A stretch of DNA of 36,924 bases from Gemmatimonadales bacterium (GTDB taxonomy: Bacteria > Gemmatimonadota > Gemmatimonadetes > Gemmatimonadales > GWC2-71-9): contig JBBQJU010000003.1 of the NCBI GenBank assembly GCA_038326215.1, forward strand, positions 1 to 36,924. Reading direction: 5' to 3'. Position numbers and translations under genes: made by a program. The notes under the pieces are model-generated. The model did no database searches and was not told the origin of the DNA. It saw only the letters and a list, made by a program, of their open reading frames with translations. Below are positions 13,925 to 23,148 of this stretch, piece by piece. Position 1 is the stretch's first letter; each line of letters begins with the position of its first letter.

Positions 13925-13962
13925 CCGTTCACCGTTCACCCCTCACCCCTCACCCCTCACCC
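13925..13962. repeat. Heptamer tandem repeat (CCGTTCA)2(CCCCTCA)3 directly after the operon's last stop codon
   Basis: Same two heptamers as at 6445-6584. The minus strand reads GGG-TGA-GGGG-TGA-GGGG-TGA-GGGG. Confidence 0.85.
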
Positions 13963-15665
13963 TAGAACCGCCAGGTCACCGCCGCATAGGTCTGCACTGA
14001 CGCGGAAGCCGCACCTGACTCGCGGTAGGTCGACAGCATCACATAAAAGGAGCGGCCAACGGCGACGTCCAAGTCACCCCCGGCCCAGCTGAGGCGTGTC
14101 GCGGGGAGGCCCGACGAGGGCATGAGGCTGGTCCGGACGCCGGCATTGAGTGACAGGCGGACGGCCTGGCCCGGGGCAACTTCGACCGCGACCGAGGAGA
14201 GTCGCCCTTCGGTGATCGCGCCGGTGTACTGCGTGGTGCGGGCGCGGAAGCCGAGGCCAAGCGCGGTGAGCTGGGTGGCGGAGGCGGAGGCGGTGATCGC
14301 CTGCGACTTCCCTTCCGAGCCGCCACCGCTGGTGCGGATGTCGCTGGTCAGCCGGAAGTGGCGCGACGGGCGCAGCGAGACTTCGCCCCACTGACCCTGG
14401 CGAAGCGCGTCATCGAACGCGATCTCGGGATTCACGAAATCGCGATAGAGCCGGACGCTGCGACGGGAGTCGAGACCACCGGAGACGGAGAGGGCACGGC
14501 TCATCGAGAGCTGCGCCGTCAGCACCGTCGAGGTCAGGGTGGCGAACGACCCCTCGACCTGGCGCTTCCAGCCACGGTTGACATCGATCTCCTCGGCCGC
14601 ATAGATCGACACGACCCGGGTGTTGAGCGTGCCGCGCAGGTAGGCGAATTCCCGATCAATTTCGCCGCGATTGTACGAGCCGATGGCGCCGACCGTCGCA
14701 CTCCATGGCGCGGCACTCCCCTGGGCGCTGTGACGCTGTAACCAGAGACCGGCCTCGGTGGTCGCGGCCGAGGGGGCGAAGGAACCGCCATCGGGCATGG
14801 TGCCGACCAGGCCACCACCACTCCATTTGCTGCCATTCACATCAAGCGCTGCACCGTCGAAGATGCCGATCGGCGACAGGACCGTCGCGAACTGGCGGCC
14901 AACCGCCAGTCGCGTCCCGGTTGGCGAACTCTGCCGGATGACGGCGGCCTGATAGACGCGTGTCGCCCCAGCCGGTGCCGACGTGGCGGACGACGATCCG
15001 CCGGTCACGTTGGTGCGCTGCATGCGCACATCCACCGCGAGCCCCATCGACGAGCCACCGACCTGCGCACCGTCCAGTCGCAGGTCGACGGAGGGCTGCC
15101 GCAGCGTGCTGCCGCCGGGCTGGTTGATGGTGAGGTAGCGGAGACCGACACGTCCACGTACCGGAGACCGACGGGCCCCGGCACGCGTGACGGGTCGGCT
15201 CCCCGCGGCGGTGAGCGCCGTCGGGAGCTGTTGGACGATGACGGGCACGAACGAGACCGAATCGCCCACCGTGATCGCGCCAGTGCTGCGGGTGACCGCG
15301 CACGCCGTCCGGCTCGAGGAGACGAAACTCGCCGAGAGCTCCCCGATCGTCTGACCGGCACGCACCACCGTGAAGAGGGTTCCTTCTTTGACACCCTGCT
15401 TGGTGCCAACCTCGAGATAGATGGTGGCACCGCTGATGTACGTCACCGCCGCCCAACTGCGGGCCACCCCAGCCGGCGGGGCGGTCGCGGCCTTCGCGGG
15501 GACGGCCGGCGGCGTGGTCTTCGGTGTGGTCTTCGCCGTAGTCTTCGGGGCAGTCATCGGGGTCGGCTTGGGCGCAGCGATCTGCGCAGTGAGGCACGCC
15601 GAGGGCAGGCCGAGACTCAGCACCACCATCGTCACCATCCTCGTCCGGGTGCATACGCGGTTCAT
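13962..15665 (-). CDS. Putative outer-membrane beta-barrel (porin of a porin-cytochrome conduit) with N-terminal Pro/Thr/Lys linker and small FlgT-C-like beta domain
   Basis: ATG 15665 overlaps the cytochrome stop (ATGA). Signal peptide ending LTA|Q, PKTT-rich linker, IYLEVGTKQGVKEG domain, then about 400 aa of alternating amphipathic strands ending TYAAVTWRF (aromatic C-terminal beta-signal). Confidence 0.75.
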   Translation of the reverse strand: MNRVCTRTRMVTMVVLSLGLPSACLTAQIAAPKPTPMTAPKTTAKTTPKTTPPAVPAKAATAPPAGVARSWAAVTYISGATIYLEVGTKQGVKEGTLFTVVRAGQTIGELSASFVSSSRTACAVTRSTGAITVGDSVSFVPVIVQQLPTALTAAGSRPVTRAGARRSPVRGRVGLRYLTINQPGGSTLRQPSVDLRLDGAQVGGSSMGLAVDVRMQRTNVTGGSSSATSAPAGATRVYQAAVIRQSSPTGTRLAVGRQFATVLSPIGIFDGAALDVNGSKWSGGGLVGTMPDGGSFAPSAATTEAGLWLQRHSAQGSAAPWSATVGAIGSYNRGEIDREFAYLRGTLNTRVVSIYAAEEIDVNRGWKRQVEGSFATLTSTVLTAQLSMSRALSVSGGLDSRRSVRLYRDFVNPEIAFDDALRQGQWGEVSLRPSRHFRLTSDIRTSGGGSEGKSQAITASASATQLTALGLGFRARTTQYTGAITEGRLSSVAVEVAPGQAVRLSLNAGVRTSLMPSSGLPATRLSWAGGDLDVAVGRSFYVMLSTYRESGAASASVQTYAAVTWRF

Positions 15666-22116: not shown

Positions 22117-22125
22117 GCGCCTGGC

Positions 22126-23148
22126 CTAGTACCGCACCACGCCAACGGCGAGGACGACCACGATATGGATGATGACGGCGACCATCGCCGTCACGGCGAA
22201 GGGACGATGCGCCACGTGCCAGAAGCGGAAGACCCGGTGGGTCGCCTCGAGCATGCGCGACTGCTGTTCCAGCGACATTTCCTGCGAGGCAAGGCGTACC
22301 GCCTCGCCGAGGGCCGCCTTGCTCAGCGGCCGCCCCGCCGGCGCGACCCCCGCCCAGCGCCGCTGCAATTCCGAGGTGCGGCGCCACCGCGTGAGATCAT
22401 CGGCGATCAGCCGCAGGAAGATCTTGCCGAGGCTCTGTTCGGCCTCCACCGGTGCGCCGACGGCCAACGTCCGTTCGACGACGTCGACGCCGAGGCCGGT
22501 GGTTTCGGCGAGTTCCCCAATCAACTCGCGCCGACGACCAGCCACTTCTTCACGGGTCAGTTCGACGCCGTTGCGGGCGCGCGGAATCCGGACATAGAGG
22601 TAGCGACCAATGACACCGCTGGCGATCACGATCATCATCGAAAGCAAGCCGAGGCCGATGAGGCCGTCGGCGCGCCAGGTCGCATGGATGGCCAGCAGCA
22701 ACGGCATAGCCAACGCGGTCGCGACATGGACGTCCATCCATTTGCCGAGGGAACCGAGGAAGGCAAGCCGCTTGTACTTCTTGCGGAGTGGGTAGAGCCA
22801 GAGAAAAATGAAGATCGCCACCGCCACCATCCCGGCGGTCAGGCCGACGGTCCCGGACGGCCGGAGCATGGCATGCCACGGATGCCGCACCCGTTGGGCC
22901 ATCGGCTCCAGATAATAGGGCGCTCCGATCAGGTTCACGGCCACGAGCGGCAATGCCACACCAAAGGTCCACGCCCAGAGCTTCCAGCGACCCCGTCGGG
23001 CGGCTGCCGTCGCCAGCGCCTTCGGTGTCGGCCGGACCGCGCCGCTGGGCGCGGCATCGACGGCTGTCGATACTTGAGGCGCCCGCACCAATTCAGGCTG
23101 GGGAGGCGCTTCAAACGCTGGCTGCAGACGGCGTGCGGGTTCGGTCAT
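22126..23148 (-). CDS. Ferric-reductase/NOX-like transmembrane di-heme cytochrome b
   Basis: About 5 TM helices. Two helices each carry H-x13-H (HVATALAMPLLLAIH; HRPFAVTAMVAVIIH). SGVIGRYLY motif, about 100-aa soluble insert, RBS GAGGAAAGGGG. Confidence 0.75.
   Translation of the reverse strand: MTEPARRLQPAFEAPPQPELVRAPQVSTAVDAAPSGAVRPTPKALATAAARRGRWKLWAWTFGVALPLVAVNLIGAPYYLEPMAQRVRHPWHAMLRPSGTVGLTAGMVAVAIFIFLWLYPLRKKYKRLAFLGSLGKWMDVHVATALAMPLLLAIHATWRADGLIGLGLLSMMIVIASGVIGRYLYVRIPRARNGVELTREEVAGRRRELIGELAETTGLGVDVVERTLAVGAPVEAEQSLGKIFLRLIADDLTRWRRTSELQRRWAGVAPAGRPLSKAALGEAVRLASQEMSLEQQSRMLEATHRVFRFWHVAHRPFAVTAMVAVIIHIVVVLAVGVVRY

Follow-up and report, generated by a model that had tools for sequence, protein, structure and literature searches.

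Porin-cytochrome conduits of the PCC3 type, the closest described relatives of the locus reported here, were defined in Alpha-, Beta-, and Gammaproteobacteria as sets of four parts, namely a porin, one cytochrome outside the cell and one in the periplasm, and an inner-membrane protein (He et al. 2017, PMC5566968). According to the main text of that article, to which our statements on its content refer, the extracellular cytochrome has a median of 34 hemes (range 10-85), is built from repeats, and is rich in Thr, Ser, Ala, and Gly, while the periplasmic cytochrome has a median of 21 hemes (21-27 in Gallionellaceae). The ratio of amino acids (aa) per heme ranges from 22 to 39, and both cytochrome genes are situated in the middle of the cluster. 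The inner-membrane protein of approximately 300 aa possesses five transmembrane (TM) helices, an SGXXG motif on TM4, and a WX3HX13H motif on each of TM3 and TM5. Examples are Slit_0867-0870 and Slit_1446-1449 of Sideroxydans lithotrophicus. The text of later work on Gallionellaceae keeps PCC3 as four genes with a predicted function (PMC10734462, 10.1101/2025.02.27.639646, PMC8788666). PCC3-type clusters are widespread and code for proteins richer in heme than any others known, and the mechanism at the inner membrane has only been hypothesised. Here we report on a cluster of this kind, accompanied by a flavoprotein gene, at positions 13962-23148 of contig JBBQJU010000003.1 of a Gemmatimonadales bacterium (GCA_038326215.1). 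The window, i.e., the whole stretch of DNA that was analysed, comprises 36.9 kb (36,924 nucleotides) and represents the entire contig of a 73%-complete metagenome-assembled genome (MAG). Its assignment to Gemmatimonadota agrees with the sources given for close protein relatives. We give about an even chance to the reading that the locus is a PCC3-type porin-cytochrome conduit for extracellular electron transfer, fed by the inner-membrane protein and the flavoprotein as a split exporter resembling NOX/FRE or MsrQ-Fre.

Five genes, termed A to E, are arranged head to tail on the minus strand, on which all features described below are located unless stated otherwise. Gene A (22126-23148) encodes an inner-membrane protein of 340 aa, a predicted di-heme b cytochrome of the PCC3/PCC4 inner-membrane protein type, and gene B (20689-22116) a predicted membrane-anchored cytoplasmic iron-sulfur (FeS) flavoprotein of 475 aa. 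These are followed by gene C (18676-20688; 670 aa), encoding a secreted 23-heme cytochrome c and putative periplasmic wire, gene D (15662-18679; 1005 aa), encoding a secreted 39+1-heme cytochrome c and putative extracellular wire, and gene E (13962-15665; 567 aa), encoding a predicted outer-membrane protein composed of a signal peptide, a small beta domain, and a barrel. For D and E, the longest open reading frames (ORFs) run into the gene before; starts in register are provided by ATG 18679 and ATG 15665, respectively. Read from the sequence, A and B are separated by a 9-bp gap and share the same frame. The B/C junction amounts to 0 bp with the C start TTG 20688 and to 9 bp with the C start ATG 20679, and the C/D and D/E junctions are ATGA overlaps. 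The initial annotation of this locus had listed five co-oriented genes with 9-bp, 0-bp, and two ATGA junctions as well as about 63 c-hemes. Both statements were confirmed from the sequence, the 0-bp junction in case C starts at TTG 20688 and the heme number as 62 canonical CxxCH motifs plus one CX4CH motif in C and D.

Judged by its sequence features, the four-gene core of A, C, D, and E has every PCC3 feature, and the cluster is not a new kind. The features compared are the motifs and five TM helices of A, the 23 hemes of C, the repeats, Thr content, and 25.8 aa per heme of D, and the barrel model of E. Both cytochromes, with 29.1 (C) and 25.8 (D) aa per heme, lie within the PCC3 range of 22-39. 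Membership in PCC3 is assigned here by architecture and motifs. The novelty of the system that the initial annotation implied has to be given up, because the core matches clusters described bioinformatically in 2017 (PMC5566968, main text). Its statement that known systems contain fewer hemes holds for the characterised systems; PCC3 with up to 85 hemes was left out of that comparison, though named for checking, and beside PCC3 the heme count of the window is not exceptional.

Differences from PCC3 concern the periplasmic cytochrome (23 or 20 hemes here versus a median of 21), the barrel (22 strands in the model of E versus up to 42 transmembrane regions predicted by He et al.), and the hosts, which are Gemmatimonadota, Calditrichota, Zixibacteria, Bacteroidota, and Acidobacteriota here and Proteobacteria in case of PCC3. 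A further difference is given by B, a fifth conserved gene, as the PCC3 text mentions no flavoprotein. The only comparable case in the text on porin-cytochrome clusters is an FeS gene (pfam13247) upstream of the inner-membrane protein gene in PCC4 subgroup II (PMC5566968). In the main texts of the literature covered, neither the A-B pairing nor an occurrence of the cluster in Gemmatimonadota, Calditrichota, Zixibacteria, Ignavibacteria, or Emticicia was found to be described. Clusters from outside the Proteobacteria, or clusters with a flavoprotein, might be among those listed in Supplementary Tables 3 and 4 of PMC5566968, which cover the carriers of PCC3 and their gene features in full. Flavoprotein B as a constant fifth partner appears to be new.

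Conservation of the five genes was followed within the phylum and beyond. Among 301 Gemmatimonadota genomes, E was found in 57 and A in 63 (E-value <= 1e-10), with both genes in 54. The three genomes with E only are represented by a contig-end fragment, a weak match with a stop codon, and a contig-start match. The distribution is patchy, with the cluster being present in 4 of 11 other genomes of the window's genus. From the loci found within the phylum 20 were fetched, and all five genes occur in each of them. The placement of B varies, with the order A-B-C-D-E in nine loci, B divergent upstream of A in eight, B-A-C-D-E in two, and B after E in one. Outside the phylum, eight distant A members used as query yielded 80 loci from Calditrichota, Zixibacteria, Ignavibacteria, and Acidobacteriota, of which 52 contain all five genes in the order A-C-D-E-B. 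Where the sequence continues for 9 kb or more after A, the complete set is present in 48 out of 49 loci, the exception being one with a merged ORF call for C and D. The shorter loci contain all five genes in 4 of 31 cases, and most of the others stop at a contig end. In two loci (L044 and L081), A is present with no C beside it. With all five genes recurring in 20/20 loci of the same phylum and 52/80 loci of other phyla, chance is far from sufficient to explain the arrangement.

A tblastn search of plasmids returned a single record, pEMTOL02 (NC_018749.1, 78197-89995, L121) of the cultured Emticicia oligotrophica DSM 17448 (Bacteroidota). The order ccsA-A-B-C-D-E of this plasmid matches the window, and C and D carry 23 and 40 hemes, respectively. 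Its D protein is 42% identical to that of the window over the full length, at a GC content of 35% compared to 67% in the window. Such an occurrence suggests that the five-gene module is a self-sufficient, horizontally mobile unit. Co-conservation of the five genes, which the initial annotation had proposed as a test of its own reading, was observed in the Gemmatimonadota loci, in the long loci of other phyla, and on pEMTOL02 alike. The heme number of C is fairly constant, with a 23-CxxCH ORF in 18 of 20 Gemmatimonadota loci and 17 hemes in the two most distant loci; of the 67 long C-type ORFs in other phyla, 59 carry 20 hemes. The heme number of D ranges from 13 to 46 across the Gemmatimonadota loci and reaches 73 in other phyla.

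For gene A, no Pfam or NCBIfam family was found above cut-off; the match to DUF4405 (PF14358) remains below the family threshold (E-value 0.043, 14.8 bits, cut-off 26.7). The protein has five TM helices in the structure model, in agreement with hydropathy, a cytoplasmic helical insert of approximately 110 residues between TM4 and TM5, and no Cys. According to the Lys/Arg distribution, the N-terminus, loop 2, and the insert are placed in the cytoplasm, and with this topology TM3 and TM5 run parallel. The WX3HX13H motifs are located on TM3 (W137 to H155, 22684-22740) and TM5 (W310 to H328, 22165-22221). W137-x3-H141-x13-H155, S177-G178-x-x-G181, and W310-x3-H314-x13-H328 are invariant in 19/19 orthologues. 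The four His residues form two pairs spaced 13 residues apart on two TM helices, as in the di-heme b cytochromes of Ferric_reduct (PF01794) and DUF4405. Going by motif positions and topology, H141 and H314 are situated towards the cytoplasmic side of the membrane and H155 and H328 towards the periplasmic side. He et al. likewise likened the heme pairs of the inner-membrane protein to the ferric-reductase domain (PMC5566968), and heme b binding was demonstrated for a DUF4405 protein, as stated in the text of PMC11334425.

The A-family profile recovers 3712 representative proteins at E-value <= 1e-3 and 476 at <= 1e-30. Both WX3HX13H motifs together with SGXXG are present in 109 of the best 150 representatives, the other 41 being mostly fragments. 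For 35 diverse relatives, sub-threshold matches were obtained to di-heme b families only, i.e., DUF4405 (20/35) and Ferric_reduct (13/35), all with E-values of 5.7e-6 or weaker, and Ni_hydr_CYTB (5/35). A VIA wide search with the model of A gave only generic helical-bundle matches (Z <= 10.2) over the cytoplasmic helices, and a search of the ESM Atlas with A returned only unnamed clusters of Gemmatimonadota, Acidobacteriota, and Myxococcota. A function of A as a thiol relay of the DsbD/CcdA kind was ruled out by the absence of Cys.

From the N-terminus, protein B comprises a TM helix, then a zinc ribbon and a two-cluster ferredoxin domain, and finally a FAD- and NAD(P)-binding domain of the thioredoxin reductase (TrxR)/YpdA fold. 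Pfam matches comprise Pyr_redox_3 (E-value 5.9e-43), Fer4_10 (1.1e-8), DZR, and zinc ribbon. The TM helix and a subsequent basic patch are present in 19/19 orthologues, which places the domains of B in the cytoplasm, and the zinc ribbon is present in 9/19. The ferredoxin domain (21724-21849) contains C90xxC93xxC96xxxC100P and C120xxH123xxC126xxxC130P, of which C90, C96, C100, C120, H123, C126, and C130 are invariant in the 19 orthologues and C93 is replaced in 2/19. In the second motif, CxxHxxCxxxCP (21739-21750 for the region of residues 123-126), the His is thus kept in 19/19; together with the partial loss of C93 this sequence pattern suggests a [3Fe-4S] or His-ligated cluster. The flavoprotein domain (20722-21510) shows the FAD motif G209xG211P212xG214, the NAD(P) motif G359-G360-G361-D-S-A, and S382-Y-R..R390, all in invariant columns.

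The nearest solved structures to B are those of YpdA/Bdr (7a7b, 8e-26), followed by TrxR-type ferredoxin-NADP+ reductases (3ab1, 2zbw, and 5ygq, 1e-14 to 1e-17), enzymes that are reversible, which is a point in favour of an inward electron flow as discussed below. YpdA/Bdr and these reductases have the FAD and NAD(P) motifs in common with the flavodomain of B, to which B adds the N-terminal TM helix and the fused two-cluster ferredoxin domain. A role of B as bacillithiol or thioredoxin disulfide reductase was rejected. The Cys residues of B occur only in the zinc ribbon, in the FeS motifs, and as the non-conserved C182, and a redox-active CxxC is absent. Ala213 aligns with Cys14 of the GGGPCG motif of YpdA, which we take to be important for bacillithiol disulfide reductase, and this position is Ala or Gly in 19/19 orthologues. 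The scores against NCBIfam YpdA (TIGR04018; 155.8 bits, cut-off 339.9) and TIGR01292 (69 bits, cut-off 343) are below cut-off. Due to the intact FAD and NAD(P) motifs and the FeS domain on the one hand, and the lack of CxxC and Cys14 on the other, B is probably built for electron transfer between NAD(P)H and FeS clusters rather than for disulfides.

C and D are multiheme cytochromes of the c7/c3 type with signal peptides. C carries 23 CxxCH motifs, a hydrophobic N-terminal signal, and a match to Cytochrome_C7 with an E-value of 5.7e-32. D carries 39 CxxCH motifs and the single CX4CH motif, matches Cytochrome_C7 (E-value 1.1e-44) and the MtrC-MtrF domain II/IV (106.9 bits), and is rich in Thr (17.8%). 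Eleven tandem triheme repeats of 73 aa extend over residues 141-943 of D (15851-18259), with a recurring CxxCH spacing of 32/16/25. In a comparison with MtrCAB, MtoAB, and PioAB, matches of C and D to the DmsE/MtrA family (TIGR03508; 55.2 and 70.1 bits, cut-off 192.2) and of D to the OmcA/MtrC family (TIGR03507; 17.4 bits, cut-off 209.3) are below cut-off. E belongs to no Pfam or NCBIfam family and matches no porin family, MtrB/PioB included, at E-value <= 0.1; a weak match to FlgT_C (E-value 0.0045) is below cut-off. In the model of E (pLDDT 72.8, mostly 80-93 in the barrel part), 22 predicted beta-strands were assigned by DSSP to residues 170-566 (13965-15158), and the sequence ends with WRF. 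A small N-terminal beta domain (residues 70-139, 15249-15458) is seen as strands of the model and contains the invariant residues Y83, G87, G91, and G134. Foldseek searches with the model retrieved outer-membrane barrels, among them PapC, AlgE, and Occ porins, at E-values of approximately 4e-8 with low TM-scores of 0.3-0.4. The barrel that the initial annotation had expected from the last gene is thereby borne out, and its overall anatomy, comprising a di-heme-b-type membrane protein, a TM-anchored FeS/FAD oxidoreductase, two heme-rich cytochromes, and a barrel, finds support in the motifs, the families, and the model of E.

For such a set of proteins the conduit from inside to outside proposed initially is the most economical reading. 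B would be tethered to the cytoplasmic face by its single N-terminal helix, hydride from NAD(P)H would be transferred onto FAD, and single electrons would then reach the cytoplasmic heme of A through both FeS clusters. The two b hemes of A would be stacked across the membrane between TM3 and TM5. C with its conserved 23 hemes is a candidate for a periplasmic wire that reaches into E, the putative 22-strand outer-membrane barrel, and D with its 11 expandable triheme repeats may represent a surface-exposed wire. The electron path would lead from NAD(P)H to FAD, FeS, heme b, heme b, 23 hemes, the barrel, 40 hemes, and finally an acceptor outside the cell, for which Fe(III)/Mn(IV) minerals, humics, another cell, and O2 are candidates. 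Cofactor binding, contact between A and B, NAD(P)H as donor, the outward direction, and independence of quinones are what we infer here. Speculatively, the five TM helices of A together with the one of B may restore a bundle of six helices as in the ferric-reductase domain.

A precedent for the inner-membrane step is MsrQ-Fre of E. coli, in which a b-type membrane cytochrome is supplied with electrons by an NAD(P)H flavoprotein of the cytosol, a protein of its own, and passes them to a periplasmic partner, and for which quinols are thermodynamically excluded as donors (PMC12525009). A path from NAD(P)H to the wire is favoured because the heme pairs of A resemble those of ferric reductases, B always accompanies A in complete loci, and MsrQ is quinol-independent. 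Outward flow would likewise be favoured, since NAD(P)H represents the low-potential end and electron movement from the N- to the P-side runs with the membrane potential.

Several points weigh against a conduit fed by A and B. Electron export from NAD(P)H without a coupling site would dissipate energy, which is odd for a respiratory pathway of 63 hemes. In a Foldseek search against the PDB, no match to A was found at E-value <= 0.001, and its model is of moderate quality (pLDDT 70). Due to the replacement of Cys by His in the second FeS motif of B, the type of this cluster is uncertain. The function of PCC3 is still predicted only, as stated in the text of PMC10734462 and 10.1101/2025.02.27.639646, and in Sideroxydans ES-1 the PCC3 clusters were not responsive to Fe(II), both being down-regulated on it, according to the text of PMC8788666. 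A-type proteins may also work without B, as the proteobacterial four-gene clusters were described without it. Moreover, MsrQ carries a bound quinone, namely ubiquinone (PMC12525009), and a quinone site in A is therefore possible.

The last two points are shared by the strongest alternative, in which the wire is connected to the quinone pool by A, acting as a quinone-active cytochrome b, electrons maybe flow inward during oxidation of metals or minerals, and B is an accessory (a feeder of the NAD(P)H:quinone type, a second entry point, or a redox regulator) rather than the obligatory donor. An exchange of the inner-membrane protein with the quinone pool is the hypothesis published by He et al. 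(PMC5566968), the proteobacterial PCC3 of that text comprises four genes and no flavoprotein, MsrQ as the nearest studied analogue binds ubiquinone (PMC12525009), and the variable position of B in the cluster would suit an accessory. The retention of B in 20/20 and 48/49 complete loci from at least five phyla and on a plasmid is hard to square with a dispensable accessory, no quinone-binding feature was identified in the sequence of A, and the fall in expression of the ES-1 clusters on Fe(II) (PMC8788666, main text) speaks against it as well. We regard this alternative as rather unlikely.

Far less probable is a maintenance role, in which A and B would export reducing power for the assembly or protection of the periplasmic machinery, such as cytochrome maturation or, as with MsrPQ, the repair of oxidised proteins, and in which the respiratory entry to the wire would be situated elsewhere. 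MsrQ-Fre (PMC12525009) provides a precedent, the Emticicia cluster directly follows ccsA, and 126 heme-binding cysteines would have to be kept reduced during maturation. Against this, A lacks Cys and hence cannot relay thiol-disulfide exchange, the five-gene unit contains no periplasmic reductase or thioredoxin-like gene, and A is the only inner-membrane component that is conserved with the wire. Reverse operation, with Fe(II), a cathode, or a partner cell delivering electrons to the wire and with A and B reducing NAD(P)+ in the cytoplasm, is the least probable of all. In its favour are the relationship of B to TrxR-type ferredoxin-NADP reductases and the first finding of PCC3 in iron oxidisers (PMC5566968, main text). 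Against it, movement from the P- to the N-side would run against the membrane potential and, with most extracellular donors, redox-uphill to NAD(P)+. The cluster also encodes no coupling device, and the PCC3 of ES-1 was down-regulated on Fe(II) (PMC8788666, main text).

Returning to the conduit fed by A and B, a more specific version can be formulated, towards which we remain sceptical while considering it possible. A and B would form an unrecognised split NAD(P)H:heme-b exporter, an analogue of NOX/FRE encoded by two genes, with the helix of B completing the five-helix bundle of A and with reducing power from the cytoplasm fed directly into a wire of 60 hemes. Such an exporter would be quinone-free, mobile, and non-energy-conserving, and would serve as an electron vent or as a reductive tool acting over long distances, either to dissolve Fe(III)/Mn(IV) minerals or to reduce extracellular humics or O2. 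The lack of energy conservation, the carriage on a plasmid, and the patchy distribution among largely aerobic or facultative heterotrophic hosts lead us to speculate on mineral reduction, redox balancing, or extracellular reduction as its purpose, in place of classical respiration.

The retention of B together with A and the wire in six or more phyla provides a concrete alternative hypothesis for electron entry, which predicts outward flow, and E. oligotrophica DSM 17448 with pEMTOL02 represents a cultured carrier of the cluster. If the conduit fed by A and B is real, a quinone-independent route would be added to extracellular electron transfer, and the process would be extended to abundant Gemmatimonadota, Ignavibacteria, Calditrichota, Zixibacteria, and Acidobacteriota of soil and sediment. 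If the split exporter is real, the inner-membrane step of the whole PCC3/PCC4 class would be reassigned. Catalogues of iron genes may miss these lineages, because none of the five proteins reaches the curated cut-off for known components of extracellular electron transfer.

The cluster is flanked by unrelated housekeeping genes, encoding an M28 peptidase, a class-V aminotransferase, and a carbonic anhydrase. An ORF of 863 aa at 28453-31044 on the plus strand and an ORF of 215 aa at 23212-23859 on the minus strand, the latter just upstream of gene A, gave no Pfam match. A scan of 13000-24500 for promoters and terminators yielded one promoter-like and four terminator-like sites with no excess over shuffled sequences and is uninformative on an operon. 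For the stretch no RNA run was listed; three DNA runs from a single sediment study contain about half of its words.

Concerning the A/B junction, the two in-frame genes are parted by the stop codon of A and three codons (22117-22128), and the 9-bp spacing is also present in the four closest relatives (L021, L022, L023, and L040). A single stop loss or read-through would give an A-B fusion. Apparent A-B or A-C fusions were encountered among the A-family representatives (P0181, P0138, P0269, and P0239). In BLAST they gave partial matches to A and B with an intervening sequence that looks out of frame, and being read as gene calls through frameshifts in GC-rich DNA, they carry no weight beyond adjacency. 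A complex prediction for residues 56-340 of A with B, two hemes, and two 4Fe-4S clusters gave a score of 0.01 against a mark of 0.32, run without controls, and thus speaks neither for nor against binding. Two other A-family representatives (P0265 and P0211) have N-terminal extensions of unknown kind.

Multiple copies and incomplete sets were observed as well. A genome of the window's genus (G233, contigs C14, C2, and C13) contains two full copies of A and E; a third copy is broken, both genes being interrupted by TGA stops. In two loci of family f1 (L034 and L035, genomes G046 and G056), a second set consisting of a 13-heme D-like gene and a second E is located directly after the first, in case of L034 additionally with a 20-heme C-like gene, which looks like a tandem duplication of the outer module. 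In an Acidobacteriota MAG (L118, 5415-7845), A and B occur as a lone pair on a 10-kb contig devoid of multiheme cytochromes; this pair may serve other periplasmic acceptors. In a Calditrichota MAG (L081, 9977-16398), an A-family protein occurs without B, C, D, and E, next to a DUF5666 protein with a type 9 secretion system (T9SS) sorting tail, an NHL-repeat protein, and an 11-heme cytochrome, a neighbourhood reminiscent of Uet clusters. On pEMTOL02, the module lies on a plasmid of 100 kb, directly after a fused cytochrome c biogenesis gene (ccsA) of 1028 aa.

Comparing the locus with other known systems, the proposed pair of A and B is similar to MsrQ-Fre in combining a b cytochrome of the ferric-reductase-domain type with a separate NAD(P)H flavoprotein and a periplasmic acceptor. 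MsrQ contains one heme and FMN, whereas two b hemes are predicted for A, which remains below the Pfam Ferric_reduct cut-off. Fre, the gene of which lies apart from msrQ, is a soluble flavin reductase of the FNR fold with neither FeS clusters nor membrane anchor, in contrast to B, which is anchored, contains FeS motifs, and is encoded in the cluster. The acceptor of MsrQ is the molybdoenzyme MsrP and not a heme wire as proposed here. NOX/FRE/STEAP proteins hold two bis-His b hemes between two parallel TM helices with His residues 13 apart, as proposed for A, and take electrons from cytoplasmic NAD(P)H via a flavin and deliver them outside the membrane, as proposed for A and B together. Their flavin/NADPH domain of the FNR or F420-type fold is fused to six TM helices and lacks FeS clusters, whereas the window encodes a separate protein of the TrxR/YpdA fold with a ferredoxin domain, and A has five TM helices, to which B adds one.

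On the outer side, MtrCAB with CymA of Shewanella as well as OmaB/OmbB/OmcB and ExtABCD with ImcH/CbcL of Geobacter follow the same plan, with a periplasmic cytochrome in a barrel and a surface cytochrome. These conduits contain 10-12 hemes per protein and are entered via quinol-oxidising inner-membrane proteins of the c-type or b/c-type. C and D of the window are far below the MtrA and OmcA/MtrC cut-offs, and E belongs to no porin family. The likeness to MtrC/MtrF is given by the stretches of D that resemble domain II/IV of these proteins.

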